DNA from: Laetmonice hystrix
Lineage: Eukaryota
Direction: 5' to 3'
Length of the DNA: 64,000 bases
NCBI GenBank assembly: GCA_965235115.1
Contig: OZ249436.1
Location: forward strand, 28,088,001 to 28,152,000
Of the stretch, positions 1-64,000 are shown piece by piece; position 1 is the stretch's first letter; every line of letters starts with the position of its first letter. Position numbers and translations under genes: made by a program. The notes below the pieces were generated by a model. It saw nothing but the letters and a program-made list of their open reading frames with translations, was not told where the DNA came from and did no database searches.

Positions 1-544
1 TCTTCTAGTTGAAACTAGCTTTAAAAGCACATGGTATTTAGCACAATAGAATCTGATCAAGCATGCAAGTGGTGATTTAGAACAACCATATTCATACCGG
101 CCTTGGCACTTAATCACCGATGACTGAAATAGATTTCCGACAATGGCTGCGCAGATAGAGTAGAGTATTGTGCTCGCAGGTTTAGAACACCGACTCCTCA
201 GCGCAATATCATGCACCGATTCTATCTCTCGATTACCCATTCATTGGGCAGCCAGCCCAACGTCAACCTCCTGAACATTATCAATGCTCATTTGATTCTG
301 ACTGAGAGAAATGGTAATTGCTCATCCTGTCTGGTGGCAGTAGGTAATCATTGGTCTTTCCTGAAGTCCGCTGGAAGAAAGCTGTCAGGCTGTTTGGGAG
401 GTAACGATGAATATTCATAGAAAACGGCGCGCTCAAACTAGCCGTTAGCTAGTCCAGTTACTGTCCTATAAGTGCAGCATTGTTATCTTTAATGGGTCTG
501 AATATTGGCATTCAACGTAATGAGTCTTTAACTTTGCTTTGGTA

Positions 545-3500
545 ACTTACCTCATAGAAGACAGTGTAGTTAACTCTACCGCTGACTGACTGGTCATAGA
601 CGACAGTGTAGCTAACTCTACCAGTGACTGACTGGTCATAGACGACAGTGTAGTTAACTCTACCGCTGACTGACTGGTCATAGACGACAGTGTAGTTAAC
701 TCTACCACTGACTGACTGGTCATAGACGACAGTGTAGTTAACTCTACCACTGACTGACTGGTCATAGACGACAGTGTAGTTAACTCTACCACTGACTGAC
801 TGGTCATAGACGACAGTGTAGTTAACTCTACCACTGACTGACTGGTCATAGACGACAGTGTAGTTAACTCTACCACTGATTGACTGGTCATAGACGACAG
901 TGTAGTTTACTCTACCACTGACTGACTGGTCAGAGACGACAGTGTAGTTAACTCTACCAGTGACTGACTGGTCATAGACGACAGTGTAGTTAACTCTACC
1001 AACGACTGACCTGGTCATAGACGAACTCTACCAACGACTGACCTGGTCATAGACGACAGTGTAGTTAACTCTACCACTACAGTGACTGACTCTGGTCATA
1101 GACGACAGTGTAGTTAACTCTACCACTGACAGACTGGTCATAGACGACAGTGTAGTTAACTCTACCGCTGACTGACTGGTCATAGACGACAGTGTAGTTA
1201 ACTCTACCACTGACTGACTGGTCATAGACGACAGTGTAGTTAACTCTACCACTGACTGACTGGTCATAGACGACAGTGTAGTGAACTCTACCACTGACTG
1301 ACTGGTCATAGACGACAGTGTAGTTAACTCTACCACTGACTGACTGGTCATAGACGACAGTGTAGTGAACTCTACCACTGACTGACTGGTCATAGACGAC
1401 AGTGTAGTTAACGCTACCAGTGACTGACTGGTCATAGACGACAGTGTAGTTTACTCTACCACTGATTGACTGGTCATAGACGACAGTGTAGTTAACTCTA
1501 CCGCTGACTGACTGGTCATAGACAACAGTGTAGTTAACTCTACCGCTGACTGACTGGTCATAGACGACAGTGTAGTTAACTCTACCGCTGACTGACTGGT
1601 CATAGACAACAGTGTAGTTAACTCTACCGCTGACTGACTGGTCATAGACGACAGTGTAGTGAACTCTACCACTGACTGACTGGTCATAGACGACAGTGTA
1701 GTTAACTCTACCACTGACTGACTGGTCATAGACAACAGTGTAGTTAACTCTACCGCTGATTGACTGGTCATAGACGACAGTGTAGTTAACTCTACCAGTG
1801 ACTGACTGGTCATAGACGACAGTGTAGTTAACGCTACCAGTGACTGACTGGTCATAGACGACAGTGTAGTTAACTTTACCAGTGACTGACTGGTCATAGA
1901 CGACAGTGTAGTTAACTCTACCAACGAATGACCTGGTCATAGACGAACTCTACCAACGACTGACCTGGTCATAGACGACAGTGTAGTTAACTCTACCACT
2001 GACTGACTCTGGTCATAGACGACAGTGTAGTGAACTCTACCACTGACTGACTCTGGTCATAGACGACAGTGTAGTTAACTCTACCGCTGACTGACTGGTC
2101 ATAGACGACAGTGTAGTGAACTCTACCACTGACTGACTGGTCATAGACGACAGTGTAGTTAACTCTACCACTGACTGACTGGTCATAGACGACAGTGTAG
2201 TTAACTCTACCAGTGACTGACTGGTCATAGACGACAGTGTAGTTAACTCTACCACTGATTGACTGGTCATAGACGACAGTGTAGTTAACTCTACCACTGA
2301 TTGACTGGTCATAGACGACAGTGTAGTTAACTCTACCAGTGACTGACTGGTCATAGACGACAGTGTAGTTAACTCTACCAGTGACTGACTGGTCATAGAC
2401 GACAGTGTAGTTAACTCTACCACTACAGTGACTGACTCTGGTCATAGACGACAGTGTAGTTAACTCTACCACTGATTGACTGGTCATAGACGACAGTGTA
2501 GTTAACTCTACCAGTGACTGACTGGTCATAGACGACAGTGTAGTTAACTCTACCAGTGACTGACTGGTCATAGACGACAGTGTAGTTAACTCTACCAACG
2601 ACTAACCTGGTCATAGACGAACTCTACCAACGACTGACCTGGTCATAGACGACAGTGTAGTTAACTCTACCACTACAGTGACTGACTCTGGTCATAGACG
2701 ACAGTGTAGTGAACTCTACCACTGACTGACTGGTCATAGACGACAGTGTAGTTAACTCTACCACTGACTGACTGGTCATAGACGACAGTGTAGTGAACTC
2801 TACCAACGAATGACCTGGTCATAGACGAACTCTACCACTGACTGACTCTGGTCATAGACGACAGTGTAGTGAACTCTACCACTGACTGACTCTGGTCATA
2901 GACGACAGTGTAGTTAACTCTACCGCTGACTGACTGGTCATAGACGACAGTGTAGTGAACTCTACCACTGACTGACTGGTCATAGACGACAGTGTAGTTA
3001 ACTCTACCACTGACTGACTGGTCATAGACGACAGTGTAGTTAACTCTACCAGTGACTGACTCTGGTCATAGACGACAGTGTAGTTAACTCTACCACTGAC
3101 TGACTGGTCATAGACGACAGTGTAGTTAACTCTACCACTGACTGACTGGTCATAGACGACAGTGTAGTTAACTCTACCACTGACTGACTGGTCATAGACG
3201 ACAGTGTAGTTAACTCTACCACTGATTGACTGGTCATAGACGACAGTGTAGTTAACTCTACCACTGATTGACTGGTCATAGACGACAGTGTAGTTAACTC
3301 TACCAGTGACTGACTGGTCATAGACGACAGTGTAGTTAACTCTACCAGTGACTGACTGGTCATAGACGACAGTGTAGTTAACTCTACCACTACAGTGACT
3401 GACTCTGGTCATAGACGACAGTGTAGTTAACTCTACCACTGATTGACTGGTCATAGACGACAGTGTAGTTAACTCTACCAGTGACTGACTGGTCATAGAC

Positions 3501-5066
3501 GACAGTGTAGTTAACTCTACCAGTGACTGACTGGTCATAGACGATAGTGTAGTTAACTCTACCAACGACTAACCTGGTCATAGACGAACTCTACCAACGA
3601 CTGACCTGGTCATAGACGACAGTGTAGTTAACTCTACCACTACAGTGACTGACTCTGGTCATAGACGACAGTGTAGTGAACTCTACCACTGACTGATTGG
3701 TCATAGACGACAGTGTAGTTAACTCTACCACTGATTGACTGGTCATAGACGACAGTGTAGTTAACTCTACCAGTGACTGACTGGTCATAGACGACAGTGT
3801 AGTTAACTCTACCAGTGACTGACTGGTCATAGACGACAGTGTAGTTAACTCTACCAACGACTGACCTGGTCATAGATGAACTCTACCAACGACTGACCTG
3901 GTCATAGACGACAGTGTAGTTAACTCTACCACTACAGTGACTGACTCTGGTCATAGACGACAGTGTAGTGAACTCTACCACTGACTGACTGGTCATAGAC
4001 GACAGTGTAGTTAACTCTACCAGTGACTGACTGGTCATAGACGACAGTGTAGTTAACTCTACCAGTGACTGACTCTGGTCATAGACGACAGTGTAGTTAA
4101 CTCTACCACTGACAGACTGGTCATAGACGACAGTGTAGTTAACTCTACCGCTGACTGACTGGTCATAGACGACAGTGTAGTTAACTCTACCACTGACTGA
4201 CTGGTCATAGACGACAGTGTAGTTAACTCTACCACTGACTGACTGGTCATAGACGACAGTGTAGTGAACTCTACCACTGACTGACTGGTCATAGACGACA
4301 GTGTAGTTAACTCTACCACTGACTGACTGGTCATAGACGACAGTGTAGTTAACTCTACCACTGACTGACTGGTCATAGACGACAGTGTAGTTAACGCTAC
4401 CAGTGACTGACTGGTCATAGACGACAGTGTAGTTTACTCTACCACTGATTGACTGGTCATAGACGACAGTGTAGTTAACTTTACCACTGACTGACTGGTC
4501 ATAGACGACAGTGTAGTTTACTCTACCACTGATTGACTGGTCATAGACGACAGTGTAGTTAACGCTACCAGTGACTGACTGGTCATAGACGACAGTGTAG
4601 TTTACTCTACCGCTAACTGACTGGTCATAGACGACAGTGTAGTTAACTCTACCAACGAATGACCTGGTCATAGACGAACTCTACCAACGACTGACCTGGT
4701 CATAGACGACAGTGTAGTTAACTCTACCACTGACTGACTCTGGTCATAGACGACAGTGTAGTGAACTCTACCACTGACTGACTCTGGTCATAGACGACAG
4801 TGTAGTTAACTCTACCACTGACTGACTGGTCATAGACGACAGTGTAGTTAACTCTACCAGTGACTGACTGGTCATAGACGACAGTGTAGTTAACTTTACC
4901 AGTGACTGACTGGTCATAGACGACAGTGTAGTTAACTCTACCACTACAGTGACTGACTCTGGTCATAGACGACAGTGTAGTGAACTCTACCACTGACTGA
5001 CCTGGTCATAGACGACAGTGTAGTTAACTCTACCAATGACTGACCTGATCATAGACGACAGTGTAG
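545..5066. repeat. 42-bp minisatellite (about 107 units) overlapping exon end and donor
   Basis: Unit gactggtcatagacgacagtgtagttaactctaccactgact; shares the last 22 nt of exon 5045-5204. Confidence 0.97.
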
Positions 5067-5204
5067 CTGACCCGGACTGTGCCCACCGCCCCATCCTCAC
5101 GGGTGATGTTGAGGCGGATGTTGCGCTCGGCGTTGCCGGGGGAGACGATAATTCTCTGTGCCGCTGGGTCCATCCCAAAACGTCCGTGGGGAAATTCGTT
5201 ATAC
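5045..5204 (-). CDS. ADGRV1: ADGRV1 exon (YNEFPHGRFG...RVSYTVVYDQ), Calx-beta
   Basis: atgcag|g acceptor, cag|gtcagt donor; phase matches the upstream exon (CG+G = Arg). Confidence 0.9.
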
Positions 5205-5493: not shown

Positions 5494-6173
5494 GATAATG
5501 GTTGAAATGCAATAATCAAACTGCGTTGTCTCACTGACCGTATGGTGAAGGAGGATAATGGTTTAAATGTAATGATCAAACTGTGCGTTGTCTCACTGAC
5601 CGTATGGTGAAGGAGGATAATGGTTTAAATGTAATGATCAAACTGTGCGTTGTCTCACTGACCGTATGGTGAAGGAGGATAATGGTTGAAATGAAATGAT
5701 CAAACTGTGCGTTGTCTCACTGACCGTATGGTGAAGGAGGATAATGGTTTAAATGTAATGATCAAACTGCGTTGTCTCACTGACCGTATGGTGAAGGAGG
5801 ATAATGGTTTAAATGCAATGATCAAACTGTGCGTTGTCTCACTGACCGTATGGTGAAGGAGGATAATGGTTGAAATGAAATGATCAAACTGTGCGTTGCC
5901 TCACTGACCGTATGGTGAAGGAGGATAATGGTTGAAATGCAATGATCAAACTGTGCGTTGTCTCACTGACCGTATGGTGAAGGAGTATAATGGTTGAAAT
6001 GCAATGATCAAACTGTGCGTTGTCTCACTGACCGTATGGTGAAGGAGGATAATGGTTGAAATGTAATGATCAAACTGTGCGTTGTCTCACTGACCGTATG
6101 GTGAAGGAGGATAATGGTTGAAATGAAATGATCAAACTGTGCGTTGTCTCACTGACCGTATGGTGAAGGAGGA
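5494..6173. repeat. 62-bp tandem repeat (about 11 units) spanning a splice donor
   Basis: Each unit = last 17 exonic nt + donor gtcagt + intron start. Confidence 0.97.
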
Positions 6174-8084: not shown

Positions 8085-8479
8085 TGACAGACCTCCCACC
8101 CGGTGACTGACTGACCTCCCACCCGGTGACTGACTGACCTCCCACCCGGTGACTGACTGACCTCCCACCCGGTGACTGACTGACCTCCCACCCGGTGACT
8201 GACTGACCTCCCACCCGGTGACTGACTGACCTCCCACCCGGCGACTGACTGACCTCCCACCCGGTGACTGACTGACTGACCTCCCACCCGGTGACTGACT
8301 GACCTCCCACCCGGCGACTGACCTCCCACCCGGTGACTGACTGACCTCCCACCCGGTGACTGACCTCCCACCCGGTGACTGACTGGCTGACTGACTGACT
8401 GACTGTCTGACTGACTGTCTGTCTGACTGACTGACTGACTGACTGACTGACTGTCTGACTGACTGACTGACTGACTCAC
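8085..8479. repeat. (GACT)n microsatellite grading into a 23-bp minisatellite, starting at a donor
   Basis: gacctcccacccggtgactgact about 13 times plus (gact)n abutting ctcac (the donor). Confidence 0.95.
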
Positions 8480-8655
8480 CCTCTGCCGACCGATCAGACC
8501 TCCGTCCCGGGCGATGTTGAAGACGAGTGAGCGACGTACGTCAGGGTTAGGGATGGTCACTTCGGTTTGTCCGATAAAACTGAACCGACCGTTCGGATAG
8601 TCGGACTTGGCGATCGTTACGACGGCTGTGGTACGACTACCGAGGAACGCCCCGC
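8480..8655 (-). CDS. ADGRV1: ADGRV1 exon (GAFLGSRTTAVVTIAKSDYPNG...GRQR)
   Basis: ttccag| acceptor, agg|gtgagt donor; phase 1/0. Confidence 0.92.
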
Positions 8656-17031: not shown

Positions 17032-17407
17032 CTGAAACCGACCACATTTAGTCTGAACTTGACGAATCTTGATAGTATCATCTTATTCCGTATGTCTTTG
17101 AAACAATATCACTTGTAACCATTTGGTACTGCATGCACTGTCCCCGGGTTTAGCCTAAAACAAAACTCGACTTTTAAATATGAAGTGAGAAAAATGATCA
17201 GTGGGGAGATCACACCGAAAGCCAGGCTCTCATGTATTTTTGGTGGTTTCTGCATATTTCACCGCAGGGCTTATCTTCAGTTCCAAATAACCCTAGGGCT
17301 TGCCTTTAGAAATAGCGACTGACAAAGAAGATGCGATAGGCAAAATATCTGAGAGGCAATGGCATTGGTGGATCCAGGACTTTCAAAATGGGGTGCGCCC
17401 CTGCAAC

Positions 17408-17701
17408 TCCGTCACTAAATGGGACGCAACCATTATTGTGCTCCAAATCCCTCCCCGTGGTCAATTATACCCGGAGACGGCTGTTGAACACCGTTAAACC
17501 ATCTTTACCACTACTCTATACCCCAATTGCTGTCACAGATCAGGTTTACCGCCCCTATAAATCCGTCACTAAATGGGACGCAACCATTATTACCCCAAAT
17601 CCCTCCCTGTGGTCAATTATACCCGGAGAAGGGTGTTGAACACCGTTAAACCATCTTTACCACTACTCTATACCCCAATTGCTGTCACAGACTCCGTTTA
17701 C
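17408..17701. repeat. Two-copy tandem duplication (period 154 bp) abutting a donor
   Basis: tccgtcactaaatgggacgcaacc...gctgtcacaga...gtttacc at 17408 and 17562. Confidence 0.9.
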
Positions 17702-18127: not shown

Positions 18128-18771
18128 ATCACCCACCTCGGGGTTATGGAGATAATACCTACACTTTTACCAAAATCATCACCCACCTCGACAGCTATGG
18201 AGATAATACCTACACTTTTACCAAAATTATCACCCACCTTGGCAGCTATGGGGACAATGCCTACACTTATACCAAAATTATCACCCACCTCGGCAGTTAT
18301 GGGGACAATGCCTACACTTTTACCAAAATCATCACCCACCTCGGCAGCTATGGAGATAATACCTACACTTTTACCAAAATCATCACCCACCTCGGCAGCT
18401 ATGGAGATAATACCTACACTTTTACCAAAATCATTACCCACCTCGGCAGCTATGGAGATAATACCTACACTTTTACCAAAATCATCACCCACCTCGGCAG
18501 CTATGGAGATAATGCCTACACTTTTACCAAAATCATCACCCACCTCGGGAGCTATGGAGATAATGCCTACACTTTTACCAAAATCATCACCCACCTCGGG
18601 AGCTATGGAGATAATGCCTACACTTTTACCAAAATCATCACCCACCTCGGCAGCTATGGAGATAATACCTACACTTTTACCAAAATCATCACCCACCTCG
18701 GCAGCTATGGAGATAATACCTACACTTTTACCAAAATCATCACCCACCTCGGCAGCTATGGAAATGATGCC
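18128..18771. repeat. 51-bp tandem repeat (12 units) spanning a donor, in frame with the exon
   Basis: Sense unit gtgggtgatgattttggtaaaagtgtaggtattatctccatagctgccgag. Confidence 0.97.
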
Positions 18772-20464: not shown

Positions 20465-21292
20465 TATATTCTACTTCTGAATGTCACTGCCTACCTGTGT
20501 TATATTCTACTTCTGAATGTCACTGCCTACCTGTGTTATATTTTACTTCTGGATGTCACTGCCTACCTGTGTTATATTCTACTTCTGAATGTCACTGCCT
20601 ACCTGTGTTATATTCTACATTTGAATGTCGCTGCCTACCTGTGTTATATTCTACTTCTGAATATCACTGCCTCCCTGTGTTATATTCTACTTCTGAATAT
20701 CACTGCCTCCCTGTGTTATATTCTACTTCTGAATATCACTGCCTCCCTGTGTTATATTCTACGTTTGAATGTCACTGCCTACCTGTGTTATATTCTACTT
20801 TTGAATGTCACTGCTTACTTGTGTTATAGTCTACTTCTGAATGTCACTGCCTACCTGTGTTATATTCTACTTCTGAATGTCACTGCCTACCTGTGTTATA
20901 TTCTACTTCTGAATGTCACTGCCTACCTGTGTTATATTCTACTTCTGAATGTCACTGCTTACTTGTGTTATAGTCTACTTCTGAATGTCACTGCTTACCT
21001 GTGTTATATTCTACTTCTGAATGTCACTGCCTACCTGTGTTATAGTCTACTTCTGAATGTCACTGCCTACCTGTGTTATATTCTACTTCTGAATGTCACT
21101 ACCTACCTGTGTTATAGTCCACTTCTGAATGTCACTGCCTACCTGTGTTATATTCTACTTCTGAATGTCACTGCCTACCTGTGTTATATTCTACTTCTGA
21201 ATGCCACTGCCTACCTGTGTTATATTCTACTTCTGAATGTCGCTGCCTACCTGTGTTATATTCTACTTCTGAATGTCACCGCCTACCTGTGT
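20465..21292. repeat. 36-bp tandem repeat (about 23 units) spanning a donor
   Basis: Sense unit gtaggcagtgacattcagaagtagaatataacacag. Confidence 0.97.
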
Positions 21293-23796: not shown

Positions 23797-24081
23797 CTAC
23801 ATAAACAACCCAATACGGTGGGCAATAAGTTGTCACTGACAGTGACAGGAAGATCTAGTACATGTAGTTTACTGCTCCCAGCTGTCAAGCGAAGCTAGTA
23901 AGCAAGTTTGAAATGTAAAAAAATACACATTCCTCCCATATGTGCTCAAAGCGTAAGAAGGATATCATTTCGTTCCCTTGAAAGAACTTCTTCGTCCCTT
24001 TAAAAACTTGTTAAAGCATACTCTGTAAATAAACAAATTCAATCAATCAATCAATCAATCAATCACAAACTAACACCTCAC

Positions 24082-25954: not shown

Positions 25955-26311
25955 AAAACTGAAATATTTCTTACTTTAGTTCATATTTCTGGATACTGGC
26001 ATCATAAATGTTTGCGATCACAAAGAAAACTGAAATATTTCTTACTTCAGGTCATAATTCTGGATACTGGCATCATAACTGTTTGCGATCACAAAGAAAA
26101 CTGAAATATTTCTTACTTCAGTTCATATTTCTGGACACTGGCATCACAACTGTTTGCGATCACAAAGAAAACTGAAATATTTCTTACTTCAGTTCATATT
26201 TCTGGATACTGGCATCACAACTGTTTGCGATCACTAAGAAAACTGAAATATTTCTTACTTCAGTTCATATTTCTGGATACCGGCATCATAACTGTTTGCG
26301 ATCACTAAGAA
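25955..26311. repeat. 71-bp tandem repeat (5 copies including the exonic one) spanning a donor
   Basis: About 53 exonic nt + gtaagaaatatttcagtt repeated. Confidence 0.96.
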
Positions 26312-26539
26312 CAACTCGCTGTCCACTCTGACGACGGCGGCAGCAGTAGCGCCCCTAGTGGCGAGTCGTTGAACCGGGGCTGAAGTAAACTTGACTTGGC
26401 TGAAGTCCCACTGGTAGACCTCGGAGGTTACTGATGTCTGTCCATTGTTATCTATGTAATTTGTCACCACTAGGTAGTGGTCATTGTTCTGTGTAAACTG
26501 GACAGCGTCAGTCGCTCCCTTTGTCGGTATGTCCTGTAC
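26259..26539 (-). CDS. ADGRV1: ADGRV1 exon, EAR/EPTP repeats
   Basis: caacag| acceptor, gaa|gtaaga donor; QDIPTKGA...YLVVTN...SEVYQWD. Confidence 0.92.
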
Positions 26540-28766: not shown

Positions 28767-28780
28767 CTGTGCAACAACAA

Positions 28781-30580
28781 CCGGCAACAATTAACACGGC
28801 AACAATTAACACGGCAACAATTAACACCGGTAATACTGCCAGTCAGAGCAGGCGGCCACCGGCAACACTGTCAGTCGGAGCGACCGGCCACCGGCAGCAC
28901 TGCCAGTCAGAGCGTCCGGCCACCGGCAGCACTGCCAGTCAGAGCAGGCGGCCACCGGCAACACTGTCAGTCGGAGCGACCGGCCACCGGCAGCACTGCC
29001 AGTCAGAGCAGGCGGCCACCGGCAACACTGTCAGTCGGAGCGACCGGCCACCGGCAGCACTGCCAGTCAGAGCAGGCGGCCACCGGCAACACTGTCAGTC
29101 GGAGCGACCGGCCACCGGCAGCACTGCCAATCAGAGCAGGCGGCCACCGGCAACACTGCCAGTCGGAGCGACCGGCCACCGGCAGCACTGCCAGTCAGAG
29201 CGTCCGGCCACCGGCAGCACTGCCAGTCAGAGTGTCCGGCCACTGGCAGCACTGCCAGTCAGAGCGACCAGCCACCGGCAGCACTGCCAGTCAGAGCGAC
29301 CAGCCACCGGCAGCACTGTCAGTCAGAGCGACCAGCCACCGGCAGCACTGCCAGTCAGAGTGTCCGGCCACTGGCAGCACTGCCAGTCAGAGCGATCAGC
29401 CACCGGCAGCACTGCCAGTCAGAGCGACCGGCCACCGGCAACACTGCCTGTCGGAGCAGGCGGCCACCGGCAACCCTGACCAGTCAGAGCGACCAGCCAC
29501 CGGCAGCACTGCCAGTCAGAGCGTCCGGCCACCGGCAGCACTGCCAGTCAGAGCGTCCGGCCACCGGCAGCACTGCCAGTCAGAGCAGGCGGCCACCCGC
29601 AACACTGTCAGTCGGAGCGACCGGCCACCGGCAGCACTGCCAGTCAGAGCAGGCGGCCGCCGGCAACGCTGTCAGTCTGAGCGACCGGCCACCGGCAACA
29701 CTGCCTGTCAGAGCAGGCGGCCACCGGCAACACTGTCAGTCAGAGCGCGCGGCCACCCGTAGCACTGCCCAGTCAGAGCGCGCGGCCACCGGTAACACTG
29801 CTGAATCAGAGCGCGCGGCCACCAGCAACACTGCCAAGTCAGAGTGCGCGGCCACAGGCAGCACTGCCAATCACAGCGCGCGGCTACTGGCAATACTGCC
29901 CAGTCAGAGCGCGCGGCCACACAGGCAGCACTGCCAGTCACAGTGCGCGGCCACCGGCAGCACTGCCGGTCAGAGCGCGCGGCTACTGGCAACACTGCCC
30001 AGTCAGAACGCGCGGCCACCGGCAGCACTGCCGGTCAGAGCGCGCGGCCACCGGCAACACTGCCCAGTCAGAGCGGGCGGCCACCGGCAACACTGCCCAG
30101 TCAGAGCGACCAGCCACCGGCAGCACTGCCTGTCAGAGCAGGCGGCCACCGGCAACACTGTCAGTCAGAGCGCGCGGCCACCGGTAGCACTGCCCAGTCA
30201 AAGCGCGCGGCCACCGGCAACACTCCCAGTCAGACCGACCGGCCACCGGCAACACTGCCAGTCAGGGCGCGTGCATGGCCACCGGCAGCACTGCCCAGCC
30301 AGAGCGCGCGGCCAAAGGCAACACTGCCAGTCAGAGCGCGCAGCCACAGGCAACACTGCCAGTCAGAGCGCGCAGCCACAGGCAACACTGCCAGTCAGAG
30401 CGTGCGGCCACCGGCAACACTGTCAGTCGGAGCACGCGGCCACAGGCAGCACTGCCAGTCAGAGCGCGCGGCCACATTCAACACTGCCAGTCAGAGCGTG
30501 CGGCCATAGGCAACACTGCCAGTCAGAGCGCGCGGCCAGCGGCAGCACTGTCAGTCAGAGCACGCGGTCACCGGCAACGC
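28781..30580. repeat. 15-bp x3 repeat plus 32-bp GC-rich minisatellite next to an acceptor; resumes at 31316-31398
   Basis: cggcaacaattaaca x3, then cagtcagagcgaccggccaccggcagcactgc variants. Confidence 0.96.
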
Positions 30581-31300: not shown

Positions 31301-31843
31301 TATAATAGAAATGAACTGCCAGTCAGAGCGCCCGGCCACCGGCAGCACTGCCAGTCAGAGCGCCCGGCCACCGGCAGCACTGCCCAGTCAGAGCACGCGC
31401 CTCTGCTGTATGCAGCTGTTAGTTGCATTAAATTGTAGTTTGTTTTGCTATTACTCCTAGACTTCTAGACCCCACTGTTTTTATATCAAACAAGGGGCAA
31501 CTTTTTAAAGCCCATACACTATTTGATCAGCTTTAGGTGAACTATACTGCACTACTAAACAAGATAACATTTTAACATCAATTCCCATGCTCATGCAGGA
31601 AAGAGACATGGATGTAGAGTGGAGATAAGTTACACGGGGGTTCAAAGCCCACCTTTTGGAATTTTTTTCTTTAAAATACACTTTCCTGATGTGCACCCTA
31701 TATACCCTTTCCAAAAACCTCGATCTGCTCCTTCAATCCTGATGTCAATCAGCAGGATTTTGGGGCGTTTCCCTTCCCCCACCTAAAATGCAGTTGTTAT
31801 GGGGCACTTAAGAACCCTGCGGCATCCTAAAAACCTCCTCTAC

Positions 31844-33644: not shown

Positions 33645-34142
33645 TGTAACATGCAACACGTCACAGTTCTCAGGATGTGACACACAACAGGATATGACAC
33701 ACAACAGGATGTAACACGCAACACGTCACAGTTCTCAGGATGTGACACACAGCAGGATATGACACACAACAGGATGTAACACGCAACACGTCACAGTTCT
33801 CAGGATGTGACACACAACAGGATATGACACACAACAGGATGTAACACGCAACACGTCACAGTTCTCAGGATGTGTCACACAACAGGATGTGACACACAAC
33901 AGGTCACGGTTCTGAGGATGTGACACACAATAGGGCACGGTTCTCAGGATGTGACAGACAACAGGTCACGGTTCTCAGGATGTGACAGACAATAGGGCAC
34001 GATTCTCAAGATGTGACACACAACAGGTCACGGTTCTCAGGCTGTGACACACAATAGGGCACGGTTCTCAGGATGTGACACGCAACAGGTCACAGTTTTC
34101 AGGATGTGACACACAAGAGATCACAGTTCTCAGGATGTGACA
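33645..34142. repeat. About 31-bp minisatellite with a 66-bp higher-order unit abutting an acceptor
   Basis: cacagttctcaggatgtgacacacaacagg variants beginning at the AG of exon 33502-33643. Confidence 0.93.
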
Positions 34143-55444: not shown

Positions 55445-55569
55445 GTCCTGCCAACAAGGTCCTGCCAACAAGGTCCTGACAACAAGGTCCTGCCAACAAT
55501 GTCCTGACAACAAGGTCCTGCCAACAATGTCCTGCCAACAATGTCCTGCCAACAATGTCCTGCCAACAA
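55445..55569. repeat. 13-bp tandem repeat starting 9 nt after a donor
   Basis: gtcctgccaacaa(t/g)-type unit, about 9 copies. Confidence 0.93.
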
Positions 55570-55577
55570 GAACTTAC

Positions 55578-56553: not shown

Positions 56554-58169
56554 CTGTAAATTATACAATATTTGTTCTCACTGTACTCCCAGGTGTGGCC
56601 TCACCCCCCCCCCCCCCCCCGTGTATACCCCCATGGGAACATCGCCACAGAACAGGGTGATATTATAAGAACTAAAAAATTATCACTTTTACCAGCCCCC
56701 CAGACCTGACTCTAACCTTTATCTTCGGTCCCCAGACCTCCCGGAAAACATTTATCACTAGCCCTAGCCCTGTGCGCAAACCTCAACTCCAATTTCATCT
56801 CAATGTTAGGCCAAACAAAAAAAAAAGTTTCGTTTCTTGTCCTTTCATATCAAAAATTTGGTGCGGTGACGCGGTTTTTTTTTCATCTTTCTTTTTTTTT
56901 GGATGCAACTAGACAACGGCCGATTCTTCGAATGCAATTGCTGTTGGGTACATGGAGAAATCTTGAAGAAAAGACTAAATGCACTGATGTTCAATGTTTT
57001 CATTAAAGAATGTGTAAAACTCACATAAAGGCACGTTGTAACCGAAGGTTCAACGAATTTTATGCAGGAAAACACGAGAGGCCTACTGTCTGAATCAGTG
57101 CCGTCATGGCAACAACTTTCTGGGTCATGTGTTGAATAATTATGTTACGCCGAATCCCATCATGCATCATGCCGCAACCGGTTGACGACCGTGACGTTGT
57201 CCTTGAATCTTCCCACTTTCTTCAAGACACGCAGGGTAACGGTTTTCAGTGGCAACGGTCGCATTTTATCACTCTCAATCGTCTTAATTTTAGTTCATCC
57301 GAGGTTGAGTTTCTAGTCACGTCTTTATAAAATGGTCACCCGTCTTTTGTACTTGCTTTCATTTTCTAGGCATAGTCTGTTGGCCTAGGTTTAGCCATCT
57401 TTATATCTCCTAGGAGTAGGAGTTAGGCCTAGGCTAAGCAAAATGGCGTCTGGGTACGTCTTGATTCTTAATCTTAGTCTTAGTGACAGCATTCATCTTC
57501 GTCGTCCTGTCACAGATACCCAAGGAGTTTAGTTCTAGAGTGAATCCGAATTTAACGTCACCGTTAGTTCTTTACTATCGGGGTAGATCTAGATCTAGTG
57601 AATGTGGCTGTAGTTTTGTTATACTTATAGACTAGATCTAGTTGATTGATAATGATAGACACTAGACTAGGCTAGTCAGGCTAGCCGGTCTAACTGGATC
57701 GACTTGTCTTATGTCATGAATTTGATACTTAGCCTGAGCCTACATTAGCGTTTAATCTAACGACGTTAGTTATGACTATATCTACTAGTTTAGAATCTAG
57801 TAACCTCGTTAGTCACTTATTGACTTAGTGTTTGACGTTGGCTCTGAGGACGGGTGGCTACGTGTCGTGTCTATTAAAATGCCATTCAATTTTGTCGTGC
57901 GGGAGTAGATCTACAAGAGTGACCGTTTTGTTTTCATCCATCGTTCATTGGTTATTTCCTATTGCCAATGTTTCCCTACACATGTAAGTTATTGTATAAA
58001 TGCTACCTTAACCTGATATATTATTACATTAAATTCATTCTATTGGCCACGGTTTCTTTATACATTATTGATACATTACAATTTACAGCATATTTGTGAA
58101 TGATGATTGATATGTATCCCGTATATACTGTACATTACGGGGCCTGTTTAATTAATCTGGCTACGTGTG

Positions 58170-63560: not shown

Positions 63561-64000
63561 GGGATGGTGACACCCTTTCTGTTCAGAAATAACCTAATTG
63601 TCCTAAACCTTTAATTAATGTTGGACACGTGCAGTGTGGGCTCACTGTCCAACTTATATTTTTAATATTATAATAAACGGGTGTTGCCCAAATAACAACA
63701 TTATCTGTTTCCGAGTGTTGCCTGCATAAAGGCACGTTGTAACCGAAGGTTCAACGAATTTTATGCAGGAAAACACGAGAGGCCTACTGTCTGAATCAGT
63801 GCCGTCATGGCAACAACTTTCTGGGTCATGTGTTGAATAATTATGTCACGCCGAATCCCATCATGCATCATGCCGCAACCGGTTGACGACCGTGACGTTG
63901 TCCTTGAATCTTCCCACTTTCTTCAAGACACGCAGGGTAACGGTTTTCAGTGCCTCCACCGCCCCACCTGCCGCCTTAGGCCATCTGTTTGATGGGCTCT

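Follow-up and report, generated by a model that had tools for sequence, protein, structure and literature searches.

A 107-unit minisatellite across a splice donor of an ADGRV1-like gene in Laetmonice hystrix, probably a large mirage repeat

Tandem repeats that cross the border between exon and intron have been described in amphioxus as mirage minisatellites. They are reported in Adh3, in the globins BflGb6 and BflGb9, in troponin C and in PGBD5 (PMC3087553, PMC3902484); mirages are said to undergo concerted evolution from which boundary units are excluded, and the mechanism of their origin is called unclear (PMC3087553). Mirages are also characterised by splicing that proceeds normally and by lengths that vary between alleles or cells. 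The type is also known from human F7 intron 7, where a 37-bp VNTR carries 5-9 identical donor sites. The first repeated donor alone was used there, even with stronger sites further on (up to a consensus value of 91), except that perfect downstream sites took 70-90% of splicing (PMC1557585).

Here we describe an array in a 64,000-nucleotide stretch of DNA from Laetmonice hystrix (the window, to which all positions refer), which appears to be a donor-spanning mirage minisatellite and a large example of this repeat type. Its unit spans the exon-intron boundary, joining 27 nt of exon end to ~15 nt of intron start, and the boundary is backed by orthologues. Mirages retain the splice signal in many, though not all, of their units, and here CAG/GT (the slash marks the splice boundary) stands at 14 of 106 internal junctions. 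Variant units recur in blocks along the array, while the first and the last unit are unique types in the unit parse. Judged from these unit types, the blocks and the private last unit fit concerted evolution within the array with the boundary units excluded. The amphioxus mirages share with the present locus tandem repeats crossing an exon-intron border, a unit length within the reported 10-160 bp, a splice signal kept in some units and not in all, an edge unit that escapes homogenisation, and several arrays per gene. The locus differs from them in its copy number (107 against 3-6 in BflGb6), in a host other than a lancelet (the gene product is 42% identical to ADGRV1 of amphioxus), and in a last unit that ends on a stronger donor. 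As in the F7 VNTR, the first unit spans the real donor and copies of that donor then sit inside the intron. The sites reported for F7 are identical, whereas the present array keeps the exact donor 9-mer in 9 of 106 internal copies and 76 have lost the G at -1; likewise, use of the first site was demonstrated for F7, whereas we infer it here.

Host gene and anatomy of the array

The array lies in a gene on the minus strand, for which a hand-refined spliced model has 32 exons and encodes 2029 aa without a stop; the median intron measures 408 nt. The model protein is 37-43% identical to ADGRV1 of amphioxus (42%), crinoid (41%) and two fishes (37-39%), all end to end, and of a nemertean (43%, C-terminal part), and its end-to-end alignment with the amphioxus protein covers residues 2827-4841 of the latter. 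Pfam searches found EPTP and Calx-beta in five of the seven exon frames scanned. Calx-beta exons accompanied by EPTP repeats, colinear with the named ADGRV1 (GPR98/VLGR1) proteins, mark the gene as a probable ADGRV1 orthologue, although the window covers part of it, the GPCR part and the exon past the array lying beyond. Two colinear exons are separated by a 21.5-kb intron (33644-55117) containing several arrays and dispersed repeated pieces. The features at the array itself are as follows.

5045..5204, minus strand: coding exon, ADGRV1-like, 160 nt, phase 2 in and phase 0 out, YNEFPHGRF...RVSYTVVYDQ; within the window it is the gene's last exon
5039..5047, minus strand: putative working donor CAG/gtcagt, G of GT at 5044; position kept in 18 of 18 informative orthologous read-throughs, gene-trained score 9.9
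552..5044, minus strand: minisatellite of 107 units, each of ~15 nt intron-derived spacer plus 27 nt of exon end (TRF and unit parse)
542..553, minus strand: strong donor-like site GAG/gtaagtta at the distal edge, G of GT at 550, where the array joins unique intron; score 11.7, spanned by contigs from 3 of 3 runs

An initial annotation of this DNA had claimed a 4.5-kb array built from an exon end, and the array is real: TRF returned a 42-bp repeat at 552-5066 with 107.4 copies and 89% matches. That annotation had also read the letters correctly. On the minus strand the exon (5204-5045) terminates CGG GTC AGC TAC ACT GTC GTC TAT GAT CAG/gtcagt, the last unit terminates TTC TAT GAG/gtaagt at 551/550, and reading through past the exon runs into TAG at the fifth codon. 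The 107 parsed units comprise 77 of 42 bp, nine of 43, seven of 44, seven of 49, six of 32 and one of 33, and among the internal units 29 of 106 have a length not divisible by 3. CAG/GT is no longer read at 92 of the 106 internal junctions; nine of the 14 that retain it are the exact donor 9-mer, and the 76 junctions without the G read GACCAGTC. The last unit carries private changes, a G>T and a short deletion. A hairpin origin of the unit was considered and rejected, two units showing no folding advantage over shuffled sequence (z 0.41 and -0.13).

The junctions were compared with Logan contigs, which are of short-read type and so do not give the length of the array, derive from one sample and were compared over region 1-640. 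The distal junction is covered in 3 of 3 DNA-like runs by contigs spanning 1-581 or 9-580, while the letters of the exon-side junction form a loose contig end in 2 of 3 runs. Since these runs may be the assembly's own source, the support speaks against an assembly slip, yet is not independent of the assembly. Summed contig depth over the repeat is 60-157x that of the flank, a ratio that does not give a copy number. Contigs of this sample and the window disagree at six single positions of the distal flank (118-373), where the contigs probably represent the other allele.

Donor-spanning arrays elsewhere in the gene

Four further arrays of the gene span a donor, so that donor-spanning arrays stand at 5 of its 32 exons.

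5494..6173, minus strand: 62 bp x 11, following the previous exon, likewise at a GTCAGT donor
18128..18762, minus strand: 51 bp x 12.5, distal end just past a donor copy, spacer absent from the flank
20465..21292, minus strand: 36 bp x 23
25955..26316, minus strand: 71 bp x 5, following an EPTP exon

After merging, the gene span holds 28 arrays. Eight span a donor or lie within 12 nt of one (five truly span it) and two abut an acceptor. Under a null in which each array stays in its own intron, with unit length and intron size allowed for, arrays are in excess at donors (8 of 28 against 1.7 expected, P 4.5e-5; 7 of 27 without the focal array, P 2.7e-4) and close to expectation at acceptors (2 of 28 against 1.6), figures that describe one gene, picked for one such array, under our own exon model and array merging. 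The asymmetry between donors and acceptors taken alone (8 versus 2) is not significant (P 0.11). This null replaced tests that treated arrays as points (P 6e-10; P 2e-8). The literature searched, which excluded most subscription papers, yielded no genome-wide test of a donor bias of minisatellites.

Several other repeats were seen in the window. Arrays 8085-8476, 17396-17691, 55445-55570 and 24039-24065 start 4, 11, 8 and 17 nt behind a donor, with units that lack exon sequence, and a TCAG microsatellite at 8480 grows directly from the donor gtgagtcag. Arrays 28771-30578 and 33645-34142 stop 5 and 2 nt short of an acceptor. One 32-bp unit occurs both in the long array 28825-30578 and in a short patch at 31315-31394 of the same intron; the unit has thus moved or been split. 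A near-identical piece of ~160 nt is present twice, at about 57060-57220 and 63765-63920, 6.7 kb apart, and is probably a dispersed repeat.

The ancestral exon end and variation among units

With the exon as query, 41 matches were obtained, 19 of them short ORFs matching the exon alone, as would fit single exons whose reading frame continues into the adjoining intron. One of the 19 stops short of the exon end and the remaining 18 are informative. In all 18 the boundary reads Y-[DN]-x followed by V, the V being the GT donor reading. Among 17 aligned ORFs x is Q in 11, I in three, L in two and K in one; the eighteenth, the ENA protein P0005, was kept out of the alignment owing to an internal repeat and has V. 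The annotated ADGRV1 proteins have YSQ (amphioxus), YQQ (nemertean) and YDQ (crinoid) at this place. In P0005 it is the other, acceptor-side end of the orthologous exon that is repeated, four times in frame, and this may represent an independent mirage at the same exon in another organism.

These boundaries bear on the proposal, made in the initial annotation, that the distal end is a relic of an older exon end. In its full form the distal TTC TAT GAG would be the older coding end (FYE) and the array would preserve an ancestral RVN. RVN and RVS do read alike, and two of the three differences between unit and exon are synonymous. Against this, no YE end occurs among the 18 informative read-through ORFs, and at the RVS/RVN column of the 17 aligned ORFs N is absent, S occurring in four and T in seven; moreover, one unit close to the distal end still has AGC. 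The FYE end of the last unit is one substitution and a deletion away from a YDQ copy. Since orthologues keep Y-[DN]-x and annotated proteins have YSQ, YQQ and YDQ, the conserved YDQ end is taken as ancestral and FYE as a decayed copy. YDQ with RVS is, by this comparison, most probably the old state, with RVN and FYE as changes within the copies, and an older coding end at the distal edge is hardly credible. Word-based protein searches and a metagenome scan found no close relative able to settle the history of the distal donor. The sole locus from the scan (L001) resembles a kinase-type protein of bacteria, unrelated and probably matching the motif by chance. It was dropped, and the scan therefore gave no orthologous donor DNA.

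It had further been pointed out that most differences between exon and unit are synonymous. The share of two in three stands, but it rests on just three differences over 27 alignable nt (P = 0.11 for all changes, 0.26 for transitions), lies within chance and needs no explanation. The pair CGG and AGA falls outside the alignable 27 nt, beyond the join. The GTT of the unit may itself be intron-derived, because the join sits at a point where GTTA in the intron looks like GTCA in the exon. The 76 internal 42-bp units contain 13 distinct variants, of which six are synonymous, against an expectation of 23-28% (P 0.06-0.13); the two most frequent variants are non-synonymous. The variation among units is neutral-looking.

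The distal donor-like site and the fate of the array

Splice donors follow the consensus CAG/GTAAGT. The distal site had been called the better match to it, and this was examined with a matrix built from the gene's other 31 donors. The distal site is modestly stronger on the matrix (11.7 versus 9.9), although both sites match the consensus at eight of nine positions. A score of at least 11.7 occurs at just 1 of 34,108 unique intron positions of the ADGRV1-like gene. The initial annotation was therefore right to notice the site, and chance alone is an unlikely reason for its position where the array ends. Among the hexamers of the 32 donors GTCAGT is the commonest (3 of 32; GTAAGT 2 of 32), and no special origin has to be sought for the working donor. 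Arrays stand at two of the three GTCAGT donors. At +3, 22 of the 32 donors have A and five have C (23649, 22405, 16843, 6157, 5045).

In our favoured explanation the array is very probably a tolerated by-product of repeat instability, with the first donor in use and the array leaving with the intron. A short duplication would have taken in the last 23-27 nt of the exon together with the start of the intron, its join placed where GTTA of the intron resembles GTCA of the exon. Slippage or unequal exchange could then have amplified the unit to 107 copies, the majority of which would subsequently have lost the G preceding GT. The last unit would have escaped homogenisation and gained its private changes, and would adjoin the old intron sequence GGTAAGTTA, which presumably either descends from the original donor or supplied the spacer of the unit. 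Any extension of the exon meets TAG at its fifth codon, and all 15 downstream AG/GT sites lie past this stop. Together with the conservation of the exon end, the stop suggests that only the most upstream donor is used, in which case the array would be removed as intron. The explanation is also supported by the four sister arrays in the gene, by the first-site use reported for the similarly built F7 repeat and by the repeat in the orthologous exon of P0005. There are counterpoints to this explanation. Perfect downstream sites did draw splicing in F7, and here nine internal copies are identical to the working donor and the distal site outscores it, although from 4.5 kb away; synonymous changes among the unit variants are somewhat commoner than expected, albeit not significantly; and random instability does not account for the donor bias of the arrays (8 of 28 against 1.7 expected).

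Within this explanation it is a finely balanced detail whether the distal GTAAGT is the original donor of the gene, as had been proposed, and we lean marginally against it. On that history an ancestor ...GAT CAG/gtaagttacc underwent a duplication, perhaps with inserted filler, that created GTCAGT, while the old donor survived in the last copy, which lost one codon. The rarity of so strong a donor (1 of 34,108 intron positions) and the prevalence of A at +3 (22 of 32) speak for the original donor, as does the array at 18128-18762, whose end is likewise a donor copy with unique intron beyond it. The flank aligns in the donor register after a 3-nt gap, a fit equalled by 105 of 3000 random intron pieces, but it fits the spacer register at least as well, with GGTA-AGTTA against GGTAGAGTTA after a 13-14-nt gap, equalled by 27 of 3000 pieces and explicable by two neutral deletions. 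A single neutral C>A in a dead copy would yield the same picture, and GTCAGT is nothing unusual among the donors of this gene (3 of 32). Three of the four sister arrays terminate in the intron-derived part, which fits the prediction of plain duplication, while the fourth ends on a donor copy, like the focal array. About 200 nt further on, the flank (~340-355) contains an inverted 13-of-15 match to donor plus spacer, found after several looks and reached by 8 of 500 random pieces; it is a weak lead, possibly the template of an inserted filler, or chance.

Two further readings concern splicing within the array, and one feature is needed for the first.

551..1027, minus strand: distal stop-free run of 477 nt in the exon frame (SVSGRVNYTVVYDQ repeats), with ten in-frame CAG sites at 590, 632 ... 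968; anatomy only

Together with the distal donor these ten CAG sites would define cassette exons of 39+42n nt. The array could accordingly be turning into a cassette exon: its donor copies would have been remodelled into acceptor-like ones and would yield an alternatively spliced exon, in frame and 39, 81, 123 ... nt long, from which the receptor would gain SVSGRVNYTVVYDQ-type repeats. Loss of one G would have turned a 43-nt, stop-carrying donor copy into an open 42-nt unit whose CAG is able to act as acceptor. The open run is present, both sides are in phase 0, and the 7 pyrimidines in 12 nt lie inside the range of the gene's acceptors (6-10). The branch-point consensus resembles TTAAC, and such a motif stands ~22 nt upstream of CAG in most units; however, the unit ahead of the 39-nt candidate lacks it, and it is too loose for much weight, being present at 15 of 32 real acceptors. 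A model in which exons are recruited from mirages has been put forward (PMC3087553). The candidate acceptor scores 3.6, below 25 of 32 real acceptors in leave-one-out scoring and thus in the weakest quarter, and the coding bias among unit variants is not significant. On balance we consider both the remodelling and the resulting cassette exon improbable. Still less probable, and to be regarded as very unlikely, is a role of the distal AG/GTAAGT as a recursive splice site from which the array is removed first. Such a site (a ratchet point) joins a good acceptor, YAG with a pyrimidine tract, to a donor. The distal GTAAGT does follow AG directly, at the edge of the array, but the acceptor would have to be GAG: it scores 2.5, and G at -3 is found in none of the 32 acceptors of the gene.

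The array is thus most likely one more mirage, and a large one. With its working donor, the nine copies identical to it and a stronger site 4.5 kb off, it offers a useful natural test of donor choice. Should the cassette exon prove true, it would be a direct case of the exon and intron gain that has been proposed for mirages, a new exon caught emerging from a mirage in a gene where repeats arise preferentially at splice donors. The donor excess of arrays, if genome-wide, would point to a mutational process linked to 5' splice sites.
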